The position numbers and the translations under genes were made by a program. A stretch of DNA of 64,000 bases from a virus, in UHGV virus genome UHGV-0038492; one strand, written 5' to 3'. Below, piece by piece: positions 6,915-63,452 of the stretch. The notes below the pieces were generated by a model that did no database searches, had not been told where the DNA came from, and worked only from the letters and a program-made list of their open reading frames with translations. Each line of letters starts with the position of its first letter. Positions within the stretch are counted from its first letter, which is position 1.

Positions 6915-7794
6915 TGTCAAAGTTTACGACGGTAAACTCTCGACGGTAACACTTAATGCGATGCGTCTGGCTACCGCATTAATTACCGGTGCCGATGTGC
7001 AATACCCACAGAAGTCCACACTGAATGAGTTTTATAAACTCATGCAAACCCCAGTGCCGGACGGTAAAGCACGTCCCCATTTGCAGTACATGGCGATTGG
7101 TAACCGTGGCCATATGGTCGACACATCAGACGTTGTTGCTGATGTTGTTCCTGTAGCTAAAGAACCTATCGCGTCCGGGATGTTTTCACGCGTTCCGTTT
7201 GTCCTGCGTACTAAAGACAACGATTTGTCTGATGAACAGCGTAAGAACTACGCTTTCCGTACTCTGGAAACCATCAACAAACGTGAGTATTGGGCGTACT
7301 ACTTAAAACGCATTGACATGCGTGCAGTAAAAACTACCGACTACGACATTAAGCGTGAGAACGGTGTTGAAACTGTAGAAGACTTTGTCTATACGGATAC
7401 TGAACTGAACCCGGTACCGAAAGTGTTGCCGGACTACGATTACGATGATGACGGTACCGTTGCAATTCCTGACGGCCGTTATGTGGAATCAGGTGCAGAC
7501 CTGGTTATTCCGTGGACGGACTTTGACGTTCAGGAGTACATGAACGTGACCAGCATTATGCGCGGTAGCCCTCGTAGTTCGATTATCTCTGAACTGGCAC
7601 TGTGCTCTGGCTTAGACCAGGTAACGTCCGGTGACTCTGCTACAGGTTCGAAGTTCAGCTACACTGAAGCTATCGGTGTACAAGCCCTGTATTACATTTC
7701 GATGTTTACTAACCTGGCGCAGACGAACGATAAACTGTCACTGACAATCCGTATCGGTCAACCTGCACCGTTCTTCTTAGGGACAGCGAATTAA
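6907..7794 (+). CDS. hypothetical protein
   Basis: 295-codon ORF, start overlaps the upstream stop. Confidence 0.6.
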   Translation: MSNVKVYDGKLSTVTLNAMRLATALITGADVQYPQKSTLNEFYKLMQTPVPDGKARPHLQYMAIGNRGHMVDTSDVVADVVPVAKEPIASGMFSRVPFVLRTKDNDLSDEQRKNYAFRTLETINKREYWAYYLKRIDMRAVKTTDYDIKRENGVETVEDFVYTDTELNPVPKVLPDYDYDDDGTVAIPDGRYVESGADLVIPWTDFDVQEYMNVTSIMRGSPRSSIISELALCSGLDQVTSGDSATGSKFSYTEAIGVQALYYISMFTNLAQTNDKLSLTIRIGQPAPFFLGTAN

Positions 7795-8438
7795 TGTTGA
7801 TTCCTGAGCCGAGACTTCCCGATAAAATGGTCAGGATCGCGGCGATAGACCCCGGTACGAGCCATCTCGGGATGGCGGTGCTGGATTGGGAATATGGCAG
7901 CGACCAAGCCGAAGTGGTGTGGGCTGATACCATGCACGTATTAGACCCAACACATCCAAGTGCGTTTGCAGAGTGTGTCGGTAAACGCGACGATCGCTTA
8001 GTAAAACTCGAAGCGTGCTACCGTGAGTTTCTTCGGATTGCGCGTCCGACGTTTGTTGCAACAGAAACGCCGTTTATGCGGCGGGCAAAACTCTCCGCGT
8101 ATGAGTCTGGTGTAGAGTTACAGCTGATGTTAAGACGGGCGTTATGGGACGTGTTTCCAGAGAAAGTGTTACACGGGTTCAATCCGATTATTGTAAAATC
8201 ATTCGTCGGTGTGGAAGCGAAAGGAACGGACAAAACAGATATGTTTCGTGCCGTAACGAAGTTGTATCGCGACCACGCGTTGTTTGACATTACAACGTTG
8301 GATGAGCACAGTATCGATGCCGTGGCGGTGGGGAATATCTTTGTCAGGGTAAACCTGTTAAACTTGAATAGTCTCCTACCGCCAAAACAAAAGTCTGCTA
8401 AGACAGCAAAACGGCGGAGAAGACGTCGGAGGAAATAG
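7794..8438 (+). CDS. RuvC-like Holliday-junction resolvase (putative), with a poly-Arg C-terminus
   Basis: N-terminal RIAAIDPGTSHLGMAVLD resembles the RuvC-fold catalytic Asp motif; C-terminus KRRRRRRRK; ATG overlaps the upstream TAA. Confidence 0.5.
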   Translation: MLIPEPRLPDKMVRIAAIDPGTSHLGMAVLDWEYGSDQAEVVWADTMHVLDPTHPSAFAECVGKRDDRLVKLEACYREFLRIARPTFVATETPFMRRAKLSAYESGVELQLMLRRALWDVFPEKVLHGFNPIIVKSFVGVEAKGTDKTDMFRAVTKLYRDHALFDITTLDEHSIDAVAVGNIFVRVNLLNLNSLLPPKQKSAKTAKRRRRRRRK

Positions 8439-48226: not shown

Positions 48227-48241
48227 GGAAAGGTGTGGGTA

Positions 48242-48907
48242 ATGGAAAAGCTTCAATATAAACGTTTAGATGATAAGTGGTTTGTATTAACGGAGGATTA
48301 CCATTATCCGTTTACGTTACGTGAGATTTATCACGACCACGTACACTTAGACCGTGCGGTTTATTTAACCGGTGTATTACCTGACACGCAACTGTGGTTA
48401 ACCGCTCCGAAAGGGTTCGTAACGGACTTAGCGTCGATACCCGAACACTTACAGGGAATTTTCCATCCTGACGGGCCTTGGGCACCGGCTGCGTGTATTC
48501 ACGACTTGTTATACCAGAAATGCAGTACGGAACGTAGCTACCCTATGACGCCCGGTGGAAACGTTTCTCGCATTATCGATAAAGAGTTCGCTGACTTAAC
48601 GTTTCTGCGTATTATGCAGTCGTTAGAAATCTCACCGTATATCTGCCAAACGTTTTATAAAGCCGTTGTAGGATTCGGTTGGGATGCTTACGTAGACCCT
48701 AACGCGAAACCGTCTTATACCACTAACGACTACCGTACGTTAGATTACAATCGAAACTATTTGTTCGTTCGCGAGTTTAAGGAGCCTGCTATTCCTGACC
48801 ACGAACGAGTTGATATCACCACAGGTTGTCCCGTTAATGTCAAATACCTGAACATTAAACGGGCTTTTCTGTCTGGGAGGGAAGATGTTTCATCCAAATC
48901 CGAGTAA
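48242..48907 (+). CDS. hypothetical protein
   Basis: ATG at 48242 after AAGGAAAGG; the track start at 48233 is GTG. Confidence 0.55.
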   Translation: MEKLQYKRLDDKWFVLTEDYHYPFTLREIYHDHVHLDRAVYLTGVLPDTQLWLTAPKGFVTDLASIPEHLQGIFHPDGPWAPAACIHDLLYQKCSTERSYPMTPGGNVSRIIDKEFADLTFLRIMQSLEISPYICQTFYKAVVGFGWDAYVDPNAKPSYTTNDYRTLDYNRNYLFVREFKEPAIPDHERVDITTGCPVNVKYLNIKRAFLSGREDVSSKSE

Positions 48908-51315: not shown

Positions 51316-51352
51316 TACCTACCTCCGTAAAGGAGGTAGGTATTTTTTTTTG
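51316..51352. terminator. bidirectional terminator
   Basis: hairpin tacctacctcc-gtaa-aggaggtaggta flanked by an A-run and a T-run. Confidence 0.65.
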
Positions 51353-51359
51353 CCGCTAA

Positions 51360-52031
51360 TTACAGCCCTTGCTCTAATGCAAACGCTTTAATTGAATCGT
51401 AATCACGGGCTTCGGCCCAAGCTCTGACTTCTTTTTTCTGTTCCGTCATTGCCTGATGCAGTTGCTGGTCGCGTTGCACAATAGCACCCAGCAGTGTTTT
51501 GCACTGCTCTAACGTAAACGGTTCGATACGGGTGTTGTTGGCCGTTAACCAATACGCTGGCGCGGTTTCTGACTGAATATAACGACTCAGTGCTACCTGT
51601 GACTTCTCATCTGCCTGGAAAGTGAAATCACCCACTTGAATCTCGGCATACCGCGCATCCTGATAACGGAATTCCAATGCGCTTAGGATTTTCTGAACAT
51701 CGGTAAAGATATACCGCACAGTGGAGCGTAAACCCGTACGAATCTCTTCCAGGTCAATTCCCAACGTGTCGTTAACAAAGTCTTTCGCTTTCTGTAACGT
51801 AAATCGTGCTTCGATTTCAGACATGTCGTAGTTACGCATTTGTTCCAATGCTTCACGATCGGACATCCCATCAATCAATTTATAGTGCAGTAACGCACAA
51901 AAACCCGTACGACCATGATCTTCGCTACCGATTTTTTCCATATAGTTACCATGGCGGTCAATCGGTAAATCGTGCTCAAAATAACGACGACGGATTTCTT
52001 CTTTCGTTAAGCCTTCACCAGTAGCAGACAT
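51360..52031 (-). CDS. hypothetical protein, last gene of the radical-SAM cluster operon
   Basis: 223-codon ORF co-oriented with the cluster. Confidence 0.55.
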   Translation of the reverse strand: MSATGEGLTKEEIRRRYFEHDLPIDRHGNYMEKIGSEDHGRTGFCALLHYKLIDGMSDREALEQMRNYDMSEIEARFTLQKAKDFVNDTLGIDLEEIRTGLRSTVRYIFTDVQKILSALEFRYQDARYAEIQVGDFTFQADEKSQVALSRYIQSETAPAYWLTANNTRIEPFTLEQCKTLLGAIVQRDQQLHQAMTEQKKEVRAWAEARDYDSIKAFALEQGL

Positions 52032-52579
52032 TCATCGTCTCCTTTAATCAATCCTAATTCGATTAACAGTTCAAAATCGATATGACGGAATCTTGTATCA
52101 AAATCCGATTCCCAATCGATGCGGATACCCTGGCACTCTTCTGATGTTAGCTCGGGAAAAATTACGGTATTAAATTTCTCACGCTCATCGTAAAACCCAT
52201 CAATCGGTGAGTTCGGGTTACGCGTTGCGAAAATAGTAATACCAGGGAAAGATAATGCTAACACAGTGATAGATTCTGCGCTGGGCTCACTTAAAGAGCG
52301 GCGTAGAAACGCAATTTTGTGGCGTGGGAAGTCCAATACGCGTTCTTCAAACCCTGGATTACGTTTTTCGATTTCCGCTACCGACAGGTCAGTAAGTTCG
52401 GTGCAATACATTGGGATGATTACAGTCACGCCGTGGCGAATCAGTAAACGTTTTACGTCATCGGTAAAATCTTCGCCGTTAATCATCACGTAACAACCGA
52501 ACAGCTTACTGTTTTCCAGAAACTTATCCAGAAGTCGAATTCTACGCTTCGTAATATTGTTGATCAGAATTGGTTTCAT
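52007..52579 (-). CDS. hypothetical protein in the radical-SAM cluster
   Basis: 190-codon ORF; AAGAGAAG upstream of ATG; start overlaps the upstream gene. Confidence 0.5.
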   Translation of the reverse strand: MKPILINNITKRRIRLLDKFLENSKLFGCYVMINGEDFTDDVKRLLIRHGVTVIIPMYCTELTDLSVAEIEKRNPGFEERVLDFPRHKIAFLRRSLSEPSAESITVLALSFPGITIFATRNPNSPIDGFYDEREKFNTVIFPELTSEECQGIRIDWESDFDTRFRHIDFELLIELGLIKGDDECLLLVKA

Positions 52580-53864
52580 CTTTGGCTTCTCTTAATAATT
52601 TTTCCTTTTGGGCGCGTTCACGAACACAGCGTGGGCAATAACACATACTCGTGTCGTGGAACGCTTTTGCTGACGTCGTACCCATCTTCTGTTTCCAGTA
52701 TTCCGCCACCATCAGTTTCGCTGTCGTCCACCCGCACTGACGTCGCTCAGCGTGATACGCTTTACGGTCTTCCAGTGTCCCTTCACCGTTTTCGTAAGAA
52801 GCCGCAGCGCAGCTACCACAAGCGTGTTTCATCGGACAACCTAAGCACGTCTCTGGATAGTTGGTATATTGTGTTTGAATCTCTTCTAACAATTTACCGT
52901 TGTCCAGGCTGACGAATTCCCGACCTACCAACTCAAATACCGCAGAACGTGATGTTACGGTTGACATAAAGCGATTGCAACCGAAGATCTTACGGTCAAA
53001 ACCTAAACACGTCATGTGTGTTAATGTCCCACAGAACGGACGTAAACGTTCTGGGTTCAACCGCACCGTGTCATTATAAAGTAATTGATCACGCCAGTTC
53101 GGTTCCCAAATCGTATCGAAATCCAACCCTTCTGGGATGATGTGCGATAAGATATTACGTGGGTTGGTGTGTAATCCTTTCTCGACCCAATAATCAATCA
53201 CATCCATCATCTGCAATGCAATTGAAGTAGCCATCCCACGTGGCATAATGTCTTCGAAGGTTACGTTGCCGGAGATAGTTCCGCCACCAGTAATATCAAT
53301 TAATGACTTCATTCCGGCAGCATAGTACGGTAACGTTTCTAACGTAAAGGTCGCCTTTACGCCAAGCTCTGCAATGCCAACCTCTTTTAAGTAGTTATAG
53401 CCTCGTACTGCGGCTTCGTAAGAACCCTGGCGCGTCGTTGTAAAGATACGATAACGGTCATGGGACTCAGGTAAGCCGTCAATTGAAACCCCAACCGAAA
53501 GTTTGTCTTTCCAACGCTCTACGATCTCACGGTTCAACGGGCGATCTAACAACGTCCCGTTTGTGGAAATACTAAACATAAACGGCCGATTATGTTCTTT
53601 ACACAACTGCTCGGCGGTTTCAAATGCAGCCAGCAGCAACTTAGGCTGCATGAACGGTTCACCACCGATAATGTCAATAATAACTTCAACATTCGGTTCG
53701 TTTTTATCGCGTTCAAAACAGGCGTGCAAGAAATCAACAATATCTGCCGCTTTGTTGTTACGCGGGTACTTACGTTCGTAACAATATTCGCAGTCCAGGT
53801 TACACGAAAGGTTCGTTACAATCTGATACGTTAGCTGCTTAGGGAATTCATTTACCTGACTCAT
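52542..53864 (-). CDS. radical SAM enzyme with SPASM-type C-terminal Cys-rich domain (anSME/peptide-maturase-like)
   Basis: CNLDCEYC (CxxxCxxC) at residues 21-28, GGEP SAM motif, C-terminal cysteines in CGTLTHMTC...GC and CLGCPMKHACGSC; GAGGGG upstream of ATG. Confidence 0.8.
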   Translation of the reverse strand: MSQVNEFPKQLTYQIVTNLSCNLDCEYCYERKYPRNNKAADIVDFLHACFERDKNEPNVEVIIDIIGGEPFMQPKLLLAAFETAEQLCKEHNRPFMFSISTNGTLLDRPLNREIVERWKDKLSVGVSIDGLPESHDRYRIFTTTRQGSYEAAVRGYNYLKEVGIAELGVKATFTLETLPYYAAGMKSLIDITGGGTISGNVTFEDIMPRGMATSIALQMMDVIDYWVEKGLHTNPRNILSHIIPEGLDFDTIWEPNWRDQLLYNDTVRLNPERLRPFCGTLTHMTCLGFDRKIFGCNRFMSTVTSRSAVFELVGREFVSLDNGKLLEEIQTQYTNYPETCLGCPMKHACGSCAAASYENGEGTLEDRKAYHAERRQCGWTTAKLMVAEYWKQKMGTTSAKAFHDTSMCYCPRCVRERAQKEKLLREAKDETNSDQQYYEA

Positions 53865-54771
53865 TTGCCGCCCCTCTATTACGACCTGCCATCACTACGC
53901 GACGAATATATTCGTACGCCTCTACACCGATAGAGAAGGCCAGTTGGTTACACCCGGATTCCAGTACGTTAGGTGCGTTCTGGAGCTGGTGCTCACCACC
54001 GTCTGCATTAATCCAGAGACTTTCGCTGCAAACGTTACACCCTTCTTCAAACACTTTACTTACCGTAAAACCACATTCACGACTGTTTACTACATTCAGT
54101 CGTTCAATGTTGTCCTGAACCCGATAGTAGCCGTAAATAAAGTTCATGACGTGGTCAGGTGATAAAGGCTTTGGCATTTTCGCATCTAAGAGTAACGTCA
54201 TTGCTCGGAAACCGTAATGGTAAATCGCGCTGTGCAGCTGAATAATATCTTCATGCCAACGTTTATCCCCCAAACGGTCCCGTGTCAAGACACCCCAAGT
54301 CTGGACATTATCCAGCTCGTAGATCGTTTCCAGTGCTTCGTAACAGCCTTCGTCAATAAAGCGCATAAATGGACGCTCAGACGACTTAAACCCATCGATG
54401 CTAACGTAGACATTGTCAAACTGTTTTAGCAACGGGAGATGCGATTTACGCATCTTTAAGCCATTGGTATACAACTGGTGTTTGAGTTCTGGACGAATCA
54501 CTTTTAATTCGTCAACAAACGCCTCAATTTTACGGGTTGCCAATAGTGGCTCACCACCCGTCCACTGAATTTCGGTAATGGTTGGATTAGCTTCCAGCGC
54601 TTCCAAAATTCGCTCACGTTGAAACTCTCGCGGAGAATCTTCACGATTCATGTAATAGGCTCCACCGCAGAAGCTACAATCCAGGTTACACTTGGACGTA
54701 GCGACTACGGACAATACGGTGGGTTTATCGTATAAACGATTCGATAACCTTGGTTCTGCATTGGTTGTCAT
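53848..54771 (-). CDS. radical SAM enzyme (paralog, shorter Cys-containing C-terminus)
   Basis: CNLDCSFC at residues 28-35, TGGEPLL motif, C-terminal CGF...CNVC. Confidence 0.75.
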   Translation of the reverse strand: MTTNAEPRLSNRLYDKPTVLSVVATSKCNLDCSFCGGAYYMNREDSPREFQRERILEALEANPTITEIQWTGGEPLLATRKIEAFVDELKVIRPELKHQLYTNGLKMRKSHLPLLKQFDNVYVSIDGFKSSERPFMRFIDEGCYEALETIYELDNVQTWGVLTRDRLGDKRWHEDIIQLHSAIYHYGFRAMTLLLDAKMPKPLSPDHVMNFIYGYYRVQDNIERLNVVNSRECGFTVSKVFEEGCNVCSESLWINADGGEHQLQNAPNVLESGCNQLAFSIGVEAYEYIRRVVMAGRNRGAANESGK

Positions 54772-54792
54772 TGCAGGTGACTCCGGTCGTTT

Positions 54793-55680
54793 TTAAATAT
54801 AATCAATGGCGAACAAAGGATCGTCGTCTACGTTAGCACCAGGGGTTAACAAGAATGGAGAGTTATACGCTTCCAAAATACGGTTAAGGTCTTTATAACG
54901 GACATTTAAACGTTCTAAATCCGCTAACGTTACGTTACGGTCCAACACCGCCGACACTGCTGCTTTCTCTTCGTCAGTTAACGTGACTTTCGTCATTAAG
55001 AAACTAACGAGTTTTGCCAGATCCGCTTCTGTTGACGGATGCTCGCCGATACGCGTTTGAATCAAATGCTGCATCCATGGTTTACGGATGCGTTTTGTGA
55101 TCTCATGTTCATCCGTTAGGGCAACCCACACGGAACGTTCACGATCCCACACGAACTTATAGCTATACGCCATTAAATCCGCTAAACAATTAATCCCTAA
55201 GGCTTCGTACCCTTCAATTTCAATATACGATTCCGTATCGAAATAGTTCTTCGTTTCTGGTGTTACCAGGGTAAAGAAATACGGGAACGAGCCCAAGTAA
55301 TCTGGTGACCACCAACGACGGGCAACCGGTTTTGCACCCATTTCTTCAAACGGGGTAAAGAACAATTCCATATCCACGGAGTTATTCAAAATCCCATCAC
55401 TAAAGAAATATTTACCTGCAACCAATTTACCACGCAACTCAGAGTCACCGGTAAATACCACTACACTTTCTGCCGTCAGATCACGAATCTTAAACGTATT
55501 TTCTACACGATAGTTTTTACGATCGGTAAAGAAACGTCCGCGCACTTTAGGCCATTCGCCTGGCAATTGCGTCAGCAGACGAACTTCATCTGCTAAGTGT
55601 GCACGTACGGAATCAGGGGAAGAAATGTGAAGTGGATGATTGAAAATCGTTTTGTACGCTAAATGTAAATCATTCTTCAT
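54793..55680 (-). CDS. hypothetical protein in the radical-SAM cluster (possible accessory/partner protein)
   Basis: ATG at 55680 after GGAG; the track start at 55692 is TTG. Confidence 0.55.
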   Translation of the reverse strand: MKNDLHLAYKTIFNHPLHISSPDSVRAHLADEVRLLTQLPGEWPKVRGRFFTDRKNYRVENTFKIRDLTAESVVVFTGDSELRGKLVAGKYFFSDGILNNSVDMELFFTPFEEMGAKPVARRWWSPDYLGSFPYFFTLVTPETKNYFDTESYIEIEGYEALGINCLADLMAYSYKFVWDRERSVWVALTDEHEITKRIRKPWMQHLIQTRIGEHPSTEADLAKLVSFLMTKVTLTDEEKAAVSAVLDRNVTLADLERLNVRYKDLNRILEAYNSPFLLTPGANVDDDPLFAIDYI

Positions 55681-55947
55681 TGATTGCTCCAACTATTTTA
55701 CGGTCAAACGGACGTTCAGGGTATAGAACCCACCCCGCCATTGTCTGCCGGTAACTTGAAACTCAGCAGTAAACCCATTCGATTTACTCGGTTGCTGGTT
55801 AATCGCCATACTACCGCCGGAATTCTTAAAACCTCTAAAGAGATAGAAGCAGAAGTCGCATTACCGATTGAGTCTATCTTAAAACTAGCCGCATCTGTAA
55901 AATTGACAGTAATACCATCACCCATCGCAACTCGGGGAAAGGCTTAC

Positions 55948-56154
55948 TTACCGCCCCCCTGCTCCCTTACTACAGCTACCGCTGCACGACCAGCTACATC
56001 CACCGTTACAGTTGTAGTGGCTTAAAGGTAAACCGGCAAGGTTATTGGTTGAAGACACGGTACCCTGGTTTGCAATATAGTTGTTTGCGTTAGCGGTCGT
56101 AATATACCCTTCCGCTGTTACTAAACGATCACGAAGGTTCTTAAGGCTAATCAC
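55948..56154 (-). CDS. Cys-rich peptide, short third copy (leader plus 4-Cys core)
   Basis: GTG start 2 nt after the upstream stop with GGGAGG SD; leader ISLKNLRDRL... and core CNGGCSWSCSGSC. Confidence 0.5.
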   Translation of the reverse strand: MISLKNLRDRLVTAEGYITTANANNYIANQGTVSSTNNLAGLPLSHYNCNGGCSWSCSGSCSKGAGGR

Positions 56155-56156
56155 AA

Positions 56157-56555
56157 TTACCTCCCAGAACACCCACCGGAACAAGAACCTGAACAGCCTG
56201 AAGAACAGTTCCCTGTACACGCGTTAGAACAGCTCCCCGTGCAACTTCCTGAACACCCACCGGAGCAGGTATTCGAACATCCGCTACAGCCCGCGCTACA
56301 ACCTGATACGCAGTTTGCAGAACACGAGGAACCACAACCACCGGATGCGTTTCCTGTGCAGCCACCAGAACAACTCGAACACGTCCAGCTACAACTACCT
56401 CCGCAGTCGTAGTGATTGCGGGCCTGTCCTCCGAATAAGTCTGCGTTGTTTGTCGCTTTCCCGCGAATATAGTTTTGTACTGCACCCGTATTCTTCAATG
56501 CAGTGCTGTCAATGTTATTTAACCGCGCTTGTAGCGCAGGTAATCCAATTGCCAT
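56157..56555 (-). CDS. Cys/Gly/Ser-rich peptide precursor (about 50-aa Cys-free leader, about 80-aa core with 20 Cys)
   Basis: AAGAGGTG upstream of ATG; core of repeated C-x2/3 units such as CSGGCSGSCTGSCSNAC. Confidence 0.65.
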   Translation of the reverse strand: MAIGLPALQARLNNIDSTALKNTGAVQNYIRGKATNNADLFGGQARNHYDCGGSCSWTCSSCSGGCTGNASGGCGSSCSANCVSGCSAGCSGCSNTCSGGCSGSCTGSCSNACTGNCSSGCSGSCSGGCSGR

Positions 56556-56565
56556 TTTTCACCTC

Positions 56566-56961
56566 TTAGGTTGGGCCAGAACAGCCGCCAGAGCAGGCAC
56601 CAGAACAACCCGTAGAACAACGGCCTGAGCAAGCACCCCCACAGGTTCCGCTACAACCTGAACACCCACCTGAACACGTTGAGCTACATCCAGTACATTG
56701 GTTACCGCACGCAGAGGAGCAGCTGCCTACACACACAGACGTACAAGTACCCGAACAGCTCGTACAACCATGCGTACAGCCGTTTGAGCACGTCCAGCTA
56801 CAACTACCTCCGCAGTCTAACCGGTTTGGCGTCCAACCCGAAAATGTGTCGGCTGCATTATGTGCTTTCGACGCAACTTGCGGATCAACACGTGGGCCAG
56901 TTGCCATTTGGTTCTCTACGTTGGTGATTCGGTCACGTACGTTTTTAACACTGATCGCCAT
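56566..56961 (-). CDS. Cys/Gly/Ser-rich peptide precursor (leader plus core with 21 Cys)
   Basis: ATG at 56961 after TAAGGA; leader VKNVRDRITNVENQ...; core begins CGGSCSWTCS. Confidence 0.65.
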   Translation of the reverse strand: MAISVKNVRDRITNVENQMATGPRVDPQVASKAHNAADTFSGWTPNRLDCGGSCSWTCSNGCTHGCTSCSGTCTSVCVGSCSSACGNQCTGCSSTCSGGCSGCSGTCGGACSGRCSTGCSGACSGGCSGPT

Positions 56962-56982
56962 CACGTATCCTTAAAATAAAAA

Positions 56983-57020
56983 AGAATGGAGGACTACGTC
57001 CATAAACATAGTTCCTCCTG
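56983..57020 (-). terminator. hairpin plus T-run between the 399-aa fibre-like gene and the first precursor gene
   Basis: on the minus strand, arms ggaggaac/gtcctcc are followed by ttcttttttatttt. Confidence 0.4.
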
Positions 57021-57028
57021 TAATTAAA

Positions 57029-58228
57029 TTATTTCGTACCCGCTTCCGCCTGTACGTCATCACGAGACGTCAGGTTAGCGTTAACGTGTACTGCGGCCTG
57101 AACCACGCCACCGTATTTCTTGTGGAGATAACCGGTGTGTGGGTTATCTGCCGCAATGTGGTTTTGTAGGTTTTGGTTCGCTTGACTGATTGCGTTCGTG
57201 TTATTGTTAACCTGCTGTTTAAGCGCATCCAGGCTTTGTTGTACCTGATTGATTTTCTGATCGGTTTCTTGACCCTGTTGCTCTAACGCGTCAACACGCT
57301 GAATAACCTGATTCAGTTTTGTGTTTAAATCGTTGATGTTCTTTTGCAGCTGTAACACTAACGAGTTCAGGTTCGCTAACGCTAAGGCCATTTTCTGGTA
57401 GTTTTGAGCAACCACGTTAAGTTGGTCGTTCCACGCTTCCAGAGAGTTGACAACAGCGTCAATACGTTTACCTAAAGCTTCGTCCGCTTTCTTCAGTGCA
57501 TTGATTTCCGTAATCGTTGCATCGATAGCAGACTGAACGTCACGAATAAGCGCACGGATTTCAGTTTCTCTTAACCCGTTAACCTGGTGAATATCAAGAT
57601 GGTGAACGTTACCCGTTGCGTTGATGTGTGCATTTAAAGCATCTAAGAAGTCATTTTTCAGACTTTCTAAAATCGCTTTAATGTTCTCTAACTGTACCGC
57701 GTCACCAGAACTGATCGCATCTTTAATCCCCGCCAATACGGTGATGATATATTCAAAACCGTAGATGTCACCCACGTCTTTATACGTCGGTGCAGACGGG
57801 AATGTATCCGGTACGTTACGTAAGTCTTTAAACGCAATCGTACGGTTATCGAGGTTTAACTCAGCAATCGCCTGTTCGATAGCCACGATGTTCGCAGACT
57901 GTGGACCACCAACGACCTGCGCAGATACCGTAATATCTGTTGGAATCGCTGTGTTAGTGACCACCACCGCCATAACAATCTCGCGGTTTTTAGTCAGCTT
58001 TTCATAAGTCGGGTGTGCAAAAATCAACTCATAATCGGTACCACGTTCGTAGGTTGCTTCCGGTCGGTTAGCAACGCGTAAACGGAACGTGTCCGCAAAG
58101 AACGGACCATCAGGAAAAGCAAAAGCACGGTTTACTTTACCTGTACCTAACGTAATCTGACGCTCCACAGCGTTAGACGTTAGCGAGCCCGTTAAATCTA
58201 AAGGATATTGATAAACAATGGAGGCCAT
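57029..58228 (-). CDS. fibrous coiled-coil virion protein (fibre/whisker-like)
   Basis: ATG at 58228 after AAGGAGAG; long heptad-like Q/N/L-rich C-terminal half; N-terminal PDGPFF motif shared with the 1727-aa protein. Confidence 0.65.
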   Translation of the reverse strand: MASIVYQYPLDLTGSLTSNAVERQITLGTGKVNRAFAFPDGPFFADTFRLRVANRPEATYERGTDYELIFAHPTYEKLTKNREIVMAVVVTNTAIPTDITVSAQVVGGPQSANIVAIEQAIAELNLDNRTIAFKDLRNVPDTFPSAPTYKDVGDIYGFEYIITVLAGIKDAISSGDAVQLENIKAILESLKNDFLDALNAHINATGNVHHLDIHQVNGLRETEIRALIRDVQSAIDATITEINALKKADEALGKRIDAVVNSLEAWNDQLNVVAQNYQKMALALANLNSLVLQLQKNINDLNTKLNQVIQRVDALEQQGQETDQKINQVQQSLDALKQQVNNNTNAISQANQNLQNHIAADNPHTGYLHKKYGGVVQAAVHVNANLTSRDDVQAEAGTK

Positions 58229-58268
58229 GGCCACTCTCCTTTATTCGAGACGTCCTTGTCCCGAGTCA

Positions 58269-61200
58269 TTAAGATGTAAACATAAGATTGAACTGGAGTT
58301 TGTCGATATCGCGAGTTTCTGCTGGATTCACACCATCGTACGCGGTCGCTACGTAAACCGTTAGCGTGCCGTTAGCGTAAGACGATTTCACCGGTGGGTT
58401 AGTTCCAGTCTGACCATCTCGCACAATGAGTGTAGGTTCACTTGGGAGATTATCAAACTGACCCTTGACCGCTTTATACACCAAACCAGATTGCGCAGAC
58501 AGTTCAGTGTCCGTAAAGACAAAGAACGGTGTGTCGATATCAGCCTGTTTAATCGTGGTACCGGTCTCGACGTCAATCAACTGTACCGCCCCAAACTTCG
58601 TACGATAACTTTCATACTCGTTCTTCGGAATAACGAACGTGACGTGAACGCGAACCTCCTCGGCAGGTTTAAACCCAGCGTGCTCTTTTTCCAGGTACTG
58701 GTTGGCGGTTAACGTGACGTCCTGCTCTTTCATCGTACCACCGGCCTGGTTTAATGCATAGCGAGCTTCAACAATACCGGTTGGCGCAGCAAGTCGCAGT
58801 TTCAGAGCACGATTTGCCGTTCCTGGATTACCTGGCACCTGAACGCGCAAACTCAATGCTAAGTAAACATTCGTTCCGGTAGTCGGTTTCGTATACGCAC
58901 CAATCCATTTCATGTTCGCAGACGCTGCCTGCGTGTTCTCAGAAGCAGTGGCTGTCGCAATGTTAGCAGCTACCGCTTTCTGCCAGAATTGGTCAGCGCA
59001 GTTCTCATACGCTACCCTGGCCACGCTCTTATAACCCGAATACGTTTCCTGAATTGGTAACTTAGGACGCGTCGTAATACCAGACAATGAACCCCATTTT
59101 TGACCGTCAACATACCCTTCGCCCTTCGACGCAGACGCCGTAGGCGCTTTAACGGGTTTGTTAACCAGTGTTAATAGAGGACCCGTCTTTCTGTCAAACG
59201 CTGCTGCAACATCATGTTGGTCGATAATTGCTGCGTGGTCTTCCAGTTCTTTCACACGACCCAAACGTTTTACTTTGTCGATGTTGATACCAGTAATACG
59301 GCTGGAATCGGTGGTTACTGACCCGACGAACAGTCTTGTTGAAGTGTCAGCTAACTGCTCCAAACCGATACGGTATTGCGCAGTAGAACCTGACACCTCA
59401 GCGTGCACGTAGAACGTCTGGTTAGCGTGGTTAGACGGGAATTCGCTGCTTAAATCCACAGACCACGTTGGGAGTGTGTAACTGCTGCTACCGAAGTCTA
59501 ACTTGACTTCTTCTGTCAAATACAGAATCCAGCCTTCTGCTGTCTCCACACCGGCAATAATAACAGCCTGACCTCCGGTTGAGAACCTCGTGTCGTTAAC
59601 GAACTCTGCGGCTGTATACGCGTTACCTGAACAGAAAACACGGTCAGCTTTAGAGTAAATCAACGCCATCTTGTCCCAATTACCCGCACCCATATAGCAC
59701 CCAGATTCTGGGTTATGTGCAGGGGCCATCTGTCGTAACTGTGACTTACCAGGAACGCGAGACCAACCTGAACCTGGGTCGTAGGTATACTTCGCGGCGT
59801 AACCTAGTGCATTTAAGTCCCCGATATTTCGGATAGTTAACGTATAAGGTAGCCAAATACCGAAGTTTACACCGTCGGCAGAAGCAAAAATTGGCTGACC
59901 GACACGTCGTGTTTTATTACCCGCTTCTTCCCTCAGAGACTGATAACTTAAACCATAATCGAGGTCTAAGAACCAGTCCACCAACTTAAAGGTGGCTGAG
60001 TTGAAACGTAAGTAGCCGTTCTCTTTAGATGGACTCACCATGAAGTAATAGATGTCAAGAATTCGACGTCCGTTACTTGAGGTTTTCATGCACGAAACTT
60101 GCAACAAGTCAAATTCGCACACGGTGTTGATACCCAACATCCAAAGAGCAAACAGTGCATTACCGGTTTGATGTGCAGCACTGATGCGCTCATTCGCGTA
60201 ACCATTTGCTTGACCAGATGGCGCACCGTCAACGATCATCCGAATCATTTTCTGACGATCGGCTTCTTCTAGCGTTAAGCGTTCGGAAGACAATGCGAAA
60301 TTACCGTAGATGTTACGATACGGGAACGTTTCTGCTTTGGTCAAATACCAACCGTTTAGCTGCCCGTGACGCTCCTCAGGAGTCATGCACGCAGCCATAC
60401 AGCTAAGCTGCTCGTAGAGCGTTGGATCGACTTCACGACGGTTGTTGTTCGGACCGTATCCGCTATAACCCGGAACATCGTAAGGTTTGTTCGGATCAAC
60501 TTCTACTTCGATGGTGTAACGGTTACGTGGGTTAGACAACCACACTTTATTCGAACCGCCTATTCCGACAGGATGGGAAAGACCGATGGTGTAAATAGAA
60601 CCGCGACCTTTATCCCAGGTAAACGTTCCTTCGCCCGAGGTGTTGTTTGGGTTATCGTAACGCAGATAATCGAAAAGCTCTTTGCCTTGTGTACCCTTAA
60701 TAGAAACATTAGGCATTTGGTCCGCATCGTTAATCTGCCAGCAGGAAAGCATCATTCCTGTACCGTTAGGTTTTGCATACGTCGCGAAACAACGGTTGTT
60801 TGCCTGACCACCACCCCACTTACGACTGGTTTCTACAGTTGAACCATCCGCGAACGAGAGTGCAGTAGCATCAGCCTTGATGGGGAAGCGTTCGCGGCCT
60901 TCTAACGTAACCTTGCCCGTCAACGTATCGATTGTAAAACTTGTTGCCCATTGACGAAAGTTAATTTGTGAGCTGTCGGCCGCTGCAAACCACACAGTAG
61001 GCATATGGTTCACACGAATCACGCTTTCGCGTACCGCACACGCGTGGTTACATTCTGGCCCGTGAACAAAGTTGTGGCCAATTGTCCATTTAGCCCGTGC
61101 TTCCGGCGTCAAATACGTAAAGAATTGACCCGTCTGCGACTCTTCGGTTTTCTGGCCAATACGTAGGCAGAGGTTATCTCCGAATTGTCCCATTTCACCG

Positions 61201-63452
61201 GTTAGTGTTACACGTTCAAATTCTAACGTAGTGTTAGTAGACAAATCGTCTTTACGTAAGCGCCATGCTGCAACAGCGTAAGCAGAGTTATTTACCGTGG
61301 AGCGGAGAAGATAAACATAGTCCTCAACCAACACAACGTCATCGGCTTCTGGCCACGGATTCCAGGTTTGTTCTGTAGTACCGCTGGGGTTACCGTTACG
61401 GTACATAGGCATCGTGACACGACATACCACCGTGTGTTTAGTGTGGTCCATCGAACCATTAAACAGCACCAAATAACGATTATTGTCAGAACCCAGGCAA
61501 ATAATCGCTTCCTGACCACCGATCAATATCGCTTTTAGGGTCACTCCAGGATATTTACTCATCCCGGCAGGGTGATATTTCACTGAGGTCTGCTGCGGAT
61601 TTACAAACGCGTTTGAGGTGTTAATGTCCGCGTAGCCGTAATAAATGGCTTCTGTACCCGGCACGCCATTAGAACCGTTACGTAGCGAATAAACCTTACC
61701 CTGCTGATACCCAACAACCCCTTTCTGGTAAGACTGGTTTTTGGTATAGCCCGCGTAGTTACCTAACGCTGGGATAGGTAAGAAGTTCTTATTACCGAAC
61801 TTCGCACCGCCTACCGTCCATGCCGGTAAGATGGTATTCAGTTTATCAGAGACTTTCTTAATCTCTTTTGCGAACAACCACCCTTGACGTGACGTGACAG
61901 CTTTATCATTAGTGGTGTCAATTGCATCCCACAGCTGTAAGACACCGTCAACCGTTGCACTACCAATTGGGACGTTATCCAAGTCAGCAGTGGTGTGGGT
62001 GTGCGTTTTCAAACTCTTGTTTTTCAACACGTTCGTTAACGCTTTTGTCACAGGCTTAGCACTCGGTATGGTGTTATCCATCTTATCGATACCGAAATCG
62101 GTTTTCGTTAAGGTTAACACCATCTTGTCGCCCGTCTTAACAAACCCTTTACCGTTAACGGTATAGTCATCGTCAACGTACAGGTCCAAACGGTCTTTTA
62201 GTTCGGTTACGGCTTTCTGGGAGATGGCAGTACCTAACGCCGCAGACGTAGAGATGTTCGTAATCGAGAACAACCCATAAACTGATTCGGACGCTGTGGG
62301 AATATTCGCGTTTAACGTGACCGGGTTAGTCTGTTTTGCAGTACCGTACGGTTTTACGGTGTCTGACGCTTTGAAATACGCGTTTGCTTCAAGCAACGTT
62401 ACTGACGTCAGATACATGTTCACCATTTCTGGCGTGACCAGGTACACGGAGTTATAAACCGGTGCTAATACATCCTGTTCTGACCCCGAGTGAACCCAAA
62501 GCGTATTCAGACCCGCACTAAACTCCACCGCTAAACCTGATTCGTTATTGTCCTGGTCTGCTTTAATCACTAACGGTTGCGGTGAGGTAATTAACCACTT
62601 ATCACCACGAATACTGATGATGTGACCACCTGACGTTTTAAACGTTAATTCATTACCGTTCGTGGTACCCCATCGACCGTAAACAGTACCGAGGGCTTCA
62701 CCCATTAACTGATCAACGTCGGATTGCTCGATACCCGCTGAACCCATCAGCGTAGCCAATTCGTCAATCGTCAACCCAAATGCTTTTGTGGCGTCAACAG
62801 CGCGTCCTAATACGGGGAGAGCAGCAACGTCGTCAGTGGTATAGTGATGCGCGTTAGGGTTACGGTGATGCTGGTATAATTCTTCGTCGAAAACCTTTTT
62901 CCCGTTCTCGTAAATCAGGTTAGTGACTTCGCTAAACGCAGCATCCAACTCCGTAGAACGCTTAATGATTTTCTTGCGAATGTCTTCTAACGCCTTAACA
63001 ACCTCGTCCCTCAGAATCGCTTCTTCTAAGTTAGCAGGCGGGTCGATAGGCTGAATAACCGGCGCATACGCCATTAGTTCAGACCAGTCCACGTTACGTG
63101 GGTCTTTCAGGTCAGTACGAACTAAGAACTTCCCGATTTCAGATTGTGGTACACGGTATTGTCGTGCTACCCCTAAAATCTCATATTCGATTTCTGTTGC
63201 GGTAAGCAACATAAACCCGCCATAAATCTGATCTTGCTCAGCTTCGGCGAGTTCTTTAAAGTAATAGCCTAAATAGTAGTCCAACCCCTCAATCAGAGTA
63301 CGACGTCCGTTAGGCGCGGTATCGTCGGCTACTGTGAGTTTTAATCCGATACGATAAAAAGGTCCTTCAGGCGGAATGACCACGTTAAATCGGTTAGGGT
63401 ACGTCGCTGTGCTTAACGTACCGTTAAACTGCGCCGCGTCTTCTCTCGGCAT
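58269..63452 (-). CDS. very large structural protein (1727 aa), probably tail fibre/host-specificity protein
   Basis: AGGAG upstream of ATG; N-terminal PPEGPFY motif parallels the 399-aa protein. Confidence 0.7.
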   Translation of the reverse strand: MPREDAAQFNGTLSTATYPNRFNVVIPPEGPFYRIGLKLTVADDTAPNGRRTLIEGLDYYLGYYFKELAEAEQDQIYGGFMLLTATEIEYEILGVARQYRVPQSEIGKFLVRTDLKDPRNVDWSELMAYAPVIQPIDPPANLEEAILRDEVVKALEDIRKKIIKRSTELDAAFSEVTNLIYENGKKVFDEELYQHHRNPNAHHYTTDDVAALPVLGRAVDATKAFGLTIDELATLMGSAGIEQSDVDQLMGEALGTVYGRWGTTNGNELTFKTSGGHIISIRGDKWLITSPQPLVIKADQDNNESGLAVEFSAGLNTLWVHSGSEQDVLAPVYNSVYLVTPEMVNMYLTSVTLLEANAYFKASDTVKPYGTAKQTNPVTLNANIPTASESVYGLFSITNISTSAALGTAISQKAVTELKDRLDLYVDDDYTVNGKGFVKTGDKMVLTLTKTDFGIDKMDNTIPSAKPVTKALTNVLKNKSLKTHTHTTADLDNVPIGSATVDGVLQLWDAIDTTNDKAVTSRQGWLFAKEIKKVSDKLNTILPAWTVGGAKFGNKNFLPIPALGNYAGYTKNQSYQKGVVGYQQGKVYSLRNGSNGVPGTEAIYYGYADINTSNAFVNPQQTSVKYHPAGMSKYPGVTLKAILIGGQEAIICLGSDNNRYLVLFNGSMDHTKHTVVCRVTMPMYRNGNPSGTTEQTWNPWPEADDVVLVEDYVYLLRSTVNNSAYAVAAWRLRKDDLSTNTTLEFERVTLTGEMGQFGDNLCLRIGQKTEESQTGQFFTYLTPEARAKWTIGHNFVHGPECNHACAVRESVIRVNHMPTVWFAAADSSQINFRQWATSFTIDTLTGKVTLEGRERFPIKADATALSFADGSTVETSRKWGGGQANNRCFATYAKPNGTGMMLSCWQINDADQMPNVSIKGTQGKELFDYLRYDNPNNTSGEGTFTWDKGRGSIYTIGLSHPVGIGGSNKVWLSNPRNRYTIEVEVDPNKPYDVPGYSGYGPNNNRREVDPTLYEQLSCMAACMTPEERHGQLNGWYLTKAETFPYRNIYGNFALSSERLTLEEADRQKMIRMIVDGAPSGQANGYANERISAAHQTGNALFALWMLGINTVCEFDLLQVSCMKTSSNGRRILDIYYFMVSPSKENGYLRFNSATFKLVDWFLDLDYGLSYQSLREEAGNKTRRVGQPIFASADGVNFGIWLPYTLTIRNIGDLNALGYAAKYTYDPGSGWSRVPGKSQLRQMAPAHNPESGCYMGAGNWDKMALIYSKADRVFCSGNAYTAAEFVNDTRFSTGGQAVIIAGVETAEGWILYLTEEVKLDFGSSSYTLPTWSVDLSSEFPSNHANQTFYVHAEVSGSTAQYRIGLEQLADTSTRLFVGSVTTDSSRITGINIDKVKRLGRVKELEDHAAIIDQHDVAAAFDRKTGPLLTLVNKPVKAPTASASKGEGYVDGQKWGSLSGITTRPKLPIQETYSGYKSVARVAYENCADQFWQKAVAANIATATASENTQAASANMKWIGAYTKPTTGTNVYLALSLRVQVPGNPGTANRALKLRLAAPTGIVEARYALNQAGGTMKEQDVTLTANQYLEKEHAGFKPAEEVRVHVTFVIPKNEYESYRTKFGAVQLIDVETGTTIKQADIDTPFFVFTDTELSAQSGLVYKAVKGQFDNLPSEPTLIVRDGQTGTNPPVKSSYANGTLTVYVATAYDGVNPAETRDIDKLQFNLMFTS

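Follow-up and report, generated by a model that had tools for sequence, protein, structure and literature searches.

The locus considered here raises the question of what two radical S-adenosylmethionine (rSAM) enzymes are doing in the midst of a phage tail-fiber module. The window analyzed, 64,000 nucleotides of the virus genome UHGV-0038492 to which all coordinates refer unless a locus is named, contains at 51360–56964 eight genes, all on the minus strand, with two tail-fiber genes immediately upstream. The region shows ~72% DNA identity to Salmonella phage SPN3US and its relatives, and the window derives from an uncultured member of this group. An initial annotation had described eight co-oriented minus-strand genes downstream of fiber genes, which we confirm gene by gene, and a layout of Cys-rich substrate plus rSAM/SPASM maturase, which is real; it interpreted the unit as a candidate cluster for a product resembling a ribosomally synthesized and post-translationally modified peptide (RiPP). 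Our comparative analysis favors another answer, which we hold to be rather probable: the locus would specify an enzyme-matured, probably thioether-cross-linked tail-fiber tip rather than a diffusible RiPP. The genes that carry this argument are the following.

57029..58234, minus strand: 401-amino-acid (aa) coiled-coil fiber protein, orthologue of SPN3US gp167, adjoining CysA upstream (phrog_2163, E 1e-102)
56566..56961, minus strand: CysA, 131 aa, 21 Cys (phrog_6085, E 2e-40; purifying selection)
56157..56555, minus strand: CysB, 132 aa, 20 Cys, junction KATNNADLFGGQARNHYDCGGSCSWTC (phrog_6085, E 2e-39; TIGR04114, 20.7 bits)
55948..56154, minus strand: CysC, 68 aa, GTG start, 4 Cys (phrog_6085, E 2e-24)
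54793..55680, minus strand: 295-aa protein of unknown fold, 'p299 family' (phrog_8030; homologues beside rSAM genes in prophages)
53848..54771, minus strand: small rSAM enzyme, 307 aa (Pfam PF04055)
52542..53864, minus strand: rSAM/SPASM maturase, 440 aa, without an N-terminal RiPP recognition element (RRE) (matches to TIGR04115, PapB and CteB)

Loci for comparison, referred to by L numbers, were gathered as homologues of the SPASM enzyme, blind to any Cys-rich gene, and comprise 80 viral loci (1.12 Mb in total) from at least three very different phage types. An open reading frame (ORF) with CXXX repeats is present on the same strand in 80/80 of these loci, with 115 such ORFs in total at a median distance of 1.1 kb, and none was found on the opposite strand in the entire 1.12 Mb. 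In the window, CysA and CysB are located 2.3–3.1 kb upstream of the SPASM gene in one operon. The Cys-rich ORFs are also kept in 21/21 SPN3US-like loci that keep the rSAM genes, a retention check that the initial annotation had proposed.

The nature of the Cys-rich proteins is indicated by the closest non-jumbo relatives, where the Cys-rich domain forms the C-terminus of a tail fiber. In a P2-like prophage of Campylobacter pinnipediorum (L005), genes for Baseplate_J and Tail_P2_I are followed by that of a 384-aa H-type fiber (phrog_327, E 1e-54), which terminates in the CXXX repeat '...GCNGCSGSCSGSCSSGCTACSGCSGSCSG...'; the fiber gene is followed by genes for a 250-aa p299-like protein, a SPASM rSAM, a small rSAM, a DUF1353 protein (L005 12068–12433), sheath and tube. 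The p299-like protein and the two rSAM enzymes thus occupy the slot of the P2 fiber-chaperone gene. A lambda-like prophage in Deferribacter abyssi encodes, four genes downstream of GpJ, a protein of 302 aa that contains HxH-type repeats, reads '...KATNADQLGGQAGSYYRCSDCSWTCSSSC...' and continues '...KATNADQLGGQAGSYYRCSDCSWTCSSSCTGSC...', and the same three partners come next. Further fusions are present in L025, L026, L028, L030, L032 and L033, one of them collagen-like; in L026, L032 and L033 the CXXX domain is fused to fibers that match tail-fiber PHROGs. The fused fibers comprise 255–568 aa, and full fiber domains are found in the fused homologues of L005, L026, L032 and L033; CysA, CysB and CysC carry a junction segment of ~20–35 aa that is common to fiber shafts, and no other fiber domain or motif is present in them. 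This junction, NA..L.GQ....Y.C..CSW[ST]C, is common to the fused fibers and all three window proteins, and the profile of phrog_6085, a family of small proteins, aligns to the fiber C-termini including the 15–35 residues before the first Cys. From the junction and the profile alignment, the window Cys proteins look like detached fiber tips. A four-part core thus recurs in fiber modules, consisting of a CXXX tip, a protein of ~250–300 aa of unknown function, a small rSAM and a SPASM rSAM. The proposal in the initial annotation that the product may be virion-associated is the part of it that the comparative data back most strongly.

CysA consists of an N-terminal segment of ~50 aa that contains the fiber-junction motif, followed by 21 Cys in CxxxC/CxxC register. 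CysC has the same N-terminus and junction as CysA and CysB and only four Cys; its orthologues give a true length of 68 aa, the 90-aa ORF of the mechanically generated list being over-extended. Seven SPN3US-like loci, among them those at greater distance, gave no CysC match, and a heterotrimeric CysA/CysB/CysC tip was rejected as a general rule, since several relatives keep A and B without CysC. Across ~20 orthologues the Cys positions are invariant and in register, while the residues between them drift among Gly, Ser, Thr, Ala and Asn, such that only the cysteines and their spacing are fixed. The proportion of synonymous differences is 0.68–0.85 (saturated), compared with 0.10–0.36 for nonsynonymous differences, a pattern which indicates that the Cys-rich ORFs are real genes under purifying selection. 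With the TIGR04114 repeat hidden Markov model (HMM; cut-off 20 bits), CysB scores 20.7 and CysA 14.4 bits, and CysC gives no match; a regular expression for the Cys repeat found no further match elsewhere in the 64-kb window. The N-terminal extra segment of the small Cys proteins is helical in AlphaFold2 predictions, at low confidence.

These genes are largely invisible in published annotations. The SPN3US annotation reads CysB out of frame, as 'gp166' (ACQ60_gp100), and has no entry for CysA or CysC (L001, NC_027402, 12167–13196), although the true CysA ORF lies on the complementary strand of JN641803 at ~143828–144220; in the Salmonella phages SPLA1a and MET_P1_082_240 the whole ~1.1 kb is unannotated (L087 5645–6763; L088 5645–6756). 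Gene callers evidently fail on Cys/Gly/Ser-rich genes of this kind. Since the true ORFs are missing from the annotation, the SPN3US proteome search was blind to the Cys proteins.

The 440-aa enzyme contains the CxxxCxxC cluster and the full SPASM cysteine set. In 22 homologues C21/C25/C28, C278, C296, C340, C343, C349, C352 and C377 are invariant, and C286 is nearly so (at least 90%). The best family is NCBIfam TIGR04115, 'radical SAM peptide maturase, CXXX-repeat target family' (116.9 bits, E 1.4e-33, cut-off 350), followed by PapB (115.9 bits, E 2e-33, cut-off 340); the SCIFF maturase and RumMC profiles give 58.3 and 50.8 bits against cut-offs of 425 and 720, and HxsB and the QhpD family TIGR03906 match with E 2e-21 and 7e-17, respectively. 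The closest solved structure is the SCIFF thioether maturase CteB (5wgg, E 3e-36), and the second closest is anSME (E 5e-17). Profile positions 14–350 align to CteB residues 105–431; since the alignment begins at CteB residue 105, there is no room for an N-terminal RRE, and the domain is absent. These matches are in agreement with the sactipeptide/ranthipeptide type of maturase suggested in the initial annotation. Nucleoside- and cofactor-modifying families, which it had named as the competing assignment, score far lower (MoaA 43.7 against a cut-off of 284 bits, QueE 35.5 against 260, viperin 39 against 180), and these matches are confined to the generic rSAM core at residues ~20–130, whereas the full-length matches are to peptide maturases. 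The sequence comparisons thus identify the 440-aa protein as an rSAM/SPASM peptide maturase and not a nucleoside or cofactor enzyme. A known defense system was also considered and rejected, as PADLOC returned only generic rSAM-core similarity to viperins.

With 117 bits against a cut-off of 350, the window enzyme belongs to a sister lineage divergent from TIGR04115. Intermediates exist (L025, 157 bits; L032, 191; L035, 268), and the distant loci carry bona fide TIGR04115 enzymes of 371–470 bits (for example L049, 470; L062, 412; L077, 402). At E ≤ 1e-30 the family counts at least 4874 proteins among the candidates scored. The canonical loci have neither a second rSAM nor a p299-like protein, and their CXXX proteins have a different N-terminal domain of ~110 aa, contain up to 122 Cys and in some cases reach 937–968 aa. 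The canonical cassettes are embedded in phage baseplate/fiber modules, between baseplate genes and fiber or lysis genes, and a phrog_2163-type protein, i.e., a member of the family of the window 401-aa protein, is often encoded upstream of the CXXX gene or of the CXXX/rSAM pair. A reverse transcriptase, maybe of the diversity-generating kind, is encoded a few genes downstream of canonical cassettes in L049 (12809–14035) and in L089 and L090 (13804–15057). In a number of contigs (L043–L048, L051, L055, L056, L058, L059, and likewise L064, L067 and L071–L074) the canonical rSAM ORF (~7000–8200) is broken by in-frame stops but reads on beyond them. All eight stops checked in five contigs are TAG, and the single one checked in L047 is TGA; these contigs probably represent stop-codon-recoded phages.

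The small rSAM enzyme has a CxxxCxxC motif at C28/C32/C35 and three conserved C-terminal cysteines, reminiscent of a twitch domain. Its closest solved relative is SkfB (E 3e-6; 30.9 bits against a profile cut-off of 300), and HxsC matches with E 5e-10. The two window rSAM enzymes have the radical-SAM core alone in common (25% identity, E 2e-5), which identifies them as distant paralogues and not as products of a recent duplication. The small enzyme accompanies only the divergent SPASM lineage, where it is found in all 34 loci but L026. In L032 (6131–8191; a 284-kb contig) it is fused with the SPASM rSAM in one 686-aa ORF, which supports the two enzymes working together. In L008 (3563–4483) and L023 (3564–4484), whose SPASM enzymes are 93% identical to that of the window, an extra small-rSAM gene is located between CysA and CysB, which suggests that individual small rSAMs may each serve specific Cys-rich proteins.

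The 295-aa protein is homologous to proteins of 224–263 aa that adjoin rSAM enzymes in unrelated prophages, and an HMM of the p299 family detects a member in each of the 34 divergent-lineage loci but in no locus outside that lineage. Its AlphaFold2 model has a mean predicted local distance difference test (pLDDT) score of 87, and a fold search of the PDB gave no match, an RRE-like fold included. The 190-aa and DUF4376 proteins encoded downstream of the enzymes are confined to the jumbo-phage lineage. The former has no Pfam, NCBIfam or PDB match; for the latter, of 223 aa, a PDB sequence search gave no match, and it has weak matches to the tail PHROGs phrog_2837 and phrog_1807. Kinship of the 295-aa family and the DUF4376 protein was tried with hhalign, which found none.

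The remaining features of the transcription unit and its surroundings are listed below.

58269..63452, minus strand: 1727-aa baseplate/tail-fiber protein, orthologue of SPN3US gp168, phiKZ gp131-like (phrog_7449, E 0; SPN3US synteny)
55693..55947, minus strand: 255-nt spacer separating substrate from maturation genes (length differs among relatives)
52007..52579, minus strand: 190-aa protein of unknown function (phrog_7988; synteny)
51360..52031, minus strand: 223-aa DUF4376 protein (PF14301, E 1e-11; phrog_8169; synteny)
51316..51342, no strand assigned: hairpin with an 11-bp stem, probable end of the transcription unit, between convergent genes

The last four genes of the unit overlap by 17–38 nt, that of the 190-aa protein overlapping its neighbors on both sides. 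For the 295-aa gene we assign the ATG at 55680, which a GGAG precedes by 7 nt; the mechanically predicted ORF begins at a TTG and has 299 codons. Between CysC and this gene the spacer measures 255 nt in the window, 137 nt in L007, where the enzymes are 99% identical, and 23 nt in SPN3US; an Rfam search of 55693–55947 gave no match, and its folding is no better than that of shuffled sequences. A scan for sigma-70 promoters gave fewer hits than in shuffled sequence. The hairpin has a perfect stem with a T-run on the plus strand only, and is flanked by the 223-aa gene (minus) and a convergent 176-aa gene (plus); an Rfam match to SNORA69 over the hairpin is sub-threshold (E 0.03) and was dismissed as chance. 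Further along, the plus-strand ORF at 48233–48907 shows by eye the DUF1353 pattern '...DLASIP...HDLLY', and its SPN3US orthologue is labeled 'tail assembly chaperone' in RefSeq.

The order of all ten genes, i.e., the two fiber genes and the eight of the unit, is conserved in 21 SPN3US-like loci, whose phages infect Salmonella, Erwinia, Cronobacter and other hosts; their SPASM identities to the window are 58%–99%, the highest being to L007, an uncultured 225-kb IMG/VR contig. Of 50,697 genomes of isolated phages, 62 contain the window enzyme lineage, and all 62 are jumbo phages of this type. The SPN3US virion proteome includes gp167 to gp173, without a head-protein mark on any of them, whereas gp161–165, to which the five downstream genes are orthologous, do not appear in it (PMC5694885, supplementary table 1); gp165, the orthologue of the 295-aa protein, is among the latter (PMC5694885). 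The gp168 protein is designated a tail protein (PMC5105663 and PMC5694885), and gp168–170 are baseplate or tail-fiber candidates (PMC5694885, PMC5105663). The absence of gp161–165 and the presence of gp167–173 in virions are what would be expected if the former are enzymes or chaperones. Within 51360–63452 the window is mosaic relative to L008/L023 and L010. Compared with L008/L023, the fiber proteins are 95–97% identical, whereas the 295-aa protein, the small rSAM and the DUF4376 protein are 69%, 79% and 62% identical, a contrast that points to recombination between the fiber genes and the maturation genes.

The genes present, the class of the enzyme, its strict linkage to CXXX genes, the fusion to fibers and the location in fiber modules are all observed; from them we infer that the Cys proteins are substrates that are modified by thioether chemistry with the help of accessory proteins and incorporated into the virion. 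CysA, CysB and CysC would be detached distal tail-fiber modules, each consisting of a short fiber-shaft junction and a CXXX repeat. In the cytoplasm of the infected cell, the RRE-less SPASM enzyme would act directly on the repeat, assisted by the small twitch-type rSAM and the 295-aa protein; lacking an RRE, it must recognize the repeat or the junction, either directly or via the 295-aa partner. The enzymes would install covalent modifications, most probably multiple Cys thioether links of the sactionine or ranthionine kind, with the small rSAM adding a second reaction or serving a subset of sites. By analogy to CteB, PapB and, for protein substrates, QhpD, thioether chemistry is the most likely, and the tip probably contains thioether cross-links. 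A disordered Gly/Ser/Thr/Cys stretch might thereby be converted to a rigid tip that resists reduction and proteases, and that can form in the reducing cytoplasm, where disulfides cannot. The tip would then join the fiber, probably via the adjacent 401-aa gp167-type protein, while the enzymes and the 295-aa, 190-aa and DUF4376 proteins would serve as maturation or assembly factors outside the virion.

Several observations weigh against this proposal. Many of the 80 loci are near-duplicates, and the number of independent observations is accordingly smaller than 80. The enzyme scores below the curated cut-off of every named family, and its chemistry can therefore not be transferred by homology. 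The window Cys proteins are small and free-standing, their attachment to a fiber being deduced from fusions elsewhere and from gene order, and an AlphaFold2 prediction of CysA from an 18-sequence alignment (pLDDT 39) gave no usable model and is uninformative. Both the putative modification of the Cys proteins and their proposed presence in virions are argued from comparative genomics. Furthermore, the residues between the cysteines vary freely, and there is no fixed acceptor residue such as the Asp of PapB; this fits α-carbon (sactionine-type) links as well as chemistry on the cysteines themselves, and does not discriminate between them.

The last point is shared with an alternative in which the proteins are tail-associated but serve another chemistry or role, for example as a metal or Fe-S module or a transient assembly module of the intramolecular-chaperone kind, or as targets of Cys/Ser oxidation to formylglycine (anSME-like), epimerization or methylation. 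The position of anSME as second-closest solved relative, the lack of a conserved acceptor between the cysteines, the HxH repeats of the Deferribacter fiber and the presence of two different rSAMs, suggestive of two reactions, are all in line with it, and metal-binding repeats are found in the fiber tips T4 gp37 and gp12. The top families and the nearest structure are, however, thioether-forming enzymes that act on Cys-rich repeats; every Cys is invariant over deep divergence, as expected if each is used; and metal binding alone would need no two dedicated rSAMs. We regard another chemistry or role as unlikely.

A classical RiPP reading, in which the N-terminal ~50 residues are a leader, the core is cross-linked by the rSAMs, a protease cleaves, and lysis frees the peptide to act as a toxin or signal or to target the host, appears to us quite improbable. 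The arrangement of substrate and SPASM enzyme does resemble that of ranthipeptide and sactipeptide loci, RiPPs are the products of the nearest enzymes, PapB and CteB, and three small genes with products of just 68–132 aa precede the enzyme genes in the order of a RiPP operon. However, in Pfam, NCBIfam and PHROG searches none of the eight proteins showed a peptidase or transporter domain, and thus no protease or exporter was found in the unit, the enzyme has no RRE and the 295-aa partner no RRE-like fold match, and the supposed leader holds the fiber junction motif. Nor do the occurrence of the same domain as the C-terminus of 255–568-aa fibers and, in canonical loci, of proteins of up to 968 aa, or the association with tail modules in both myo- and siphovirus-type phages lend support to a leader-plus-core pathway. 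It is barely credible, finally, that the rSAMs are auxiliary metabolic, nucleoside or cofactor genes unrelated to the Cys ORFs and that the latter are low-complexity artefacts. Genome papers list phage rSAM genes as metabolic extras that lack an explanation, gene callers miss the Cys ORFs, and there are weak matches to MoaA, QueE and viperin; against this stand the restriction of those matches to the generic core, the purifying selection and invariant cysteines of the Cys ORFs, and the co-occurrence in 80/80 loci.

The cross-linked fiber tip has partial precedents. TIGR04115 and TIGR04114 likewise describe a SPASM rSAM adjoining tandem C-x-x-x proteins, on phage contigs and in tail modules too; the window lineage differs in the addition of the small rSAM and the p299-family protein, and in a 'Y.C..CSW.C' or 'GSG...G-C' junction where the canonical TIGR04114 targets have the ~110-aa N-terminal domain. 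To our knowledge, TIGR04115 has been defined only bioinformatically. PapB and CteB share the SPASM architecture and the repeated-Cys substrates (PapA has six CX3D units) and form thioether links; unlike them, the window enzyme has no RRE, lacks a conserved Asp/Glu/Thr acceptor in its substrates and falls below the cut-offs, and where their substrates are short secreted peptides, those in the window would be fiber-linked proteins. QhpD, another SPASM rSAM, cross-links the γ subunit of quinohemoprotein amine dehydrogenase, placing Cys thioethers in a protein that is kept within a larger assembly and is not released as a natural product; it belongs to a different family, acts on an enzyme subunit and is not phage-encoded. 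The HxsB/HxsC His-Xaa-Ser system also combines a short-period repeat substrate with two different rSAMs; the window enzymes score far below its cut-offs, its repeat chemistry is another, and it has no phage tail context. Finally, P2 gene G/Tfa and T4 gp38 are encoded right after the fiber gene, act on the C-terminal tip and are absent from the virion. The gene slot in the Campylobacter prophage and the absence of SPN3US gp161–165 from virions match these fiber chaperones; there is, however, no similarity in sequence or fold, and the proposed action is covalent modification, not folding help.

The initial annotation did not recognize the combination as a described phage system. In so far as the pairing is curated as TIGR04114/TIGR04115 and each gene belongs to a PHROG family of unknown function, the kind of system is already known. 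In the openly accessible literature searched, we found no paper that links rSAM enzymes to Cys-rich tail-fiber domains and none on the chemistry or tail association of TIGR04115. Relative to that literature, what appears to be new includes the identification of the targets as tail-fiber modules, with the whole family residing in phage tail gene clusters, and the systematic absence of the substrate genes from genome annotations published so far. Since these genes are missed or mis-framed in SPN3US-type genomes, proteomic and host-range studies have been blind to their products.

Phage genome papers have called rSAM genes in structural clusters "highly unusual" or guessed at metabolic roles. If the proposal is true, it would explain the presence of rSAM genes inside the structural clusters of giant and other phages. 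It would also represent a new kind of virion maturation; the isopeptide bonds of the HK97 capsid form autocatalytically, and we know of no description of dedicated rSAM enzymes acting on tail-fiber tips in the searchable literature. The substrates, with up to 122 Cys, would be very long, regular, multi-site rSAM substrates. The idea is directly testable in SPN3US, a genetic model for which amber mutants exist and virion proteomics is established. More tentatively, and with somewhat less than even confidence, we suggest that the entire CXXX-repeat/rSAM family, with its thousands of metagenomic members and the curated TIGR04115 included, is a phage tail-fiber maturation system and not a RiPP pathway, in which case the at least 4874 relatives of this large curated family of maturases would be re-labeled as acting on structural proteins. 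Across the family, the enzymes would build thioether ladders into distal, possibly receptor-binding, tips, which would be the first enzyme-installed radical cross-links in a virion adsorption organelle, and such ladders may serve as a redox-proof substitute for disulfides in anaerobic or reducing habitats.

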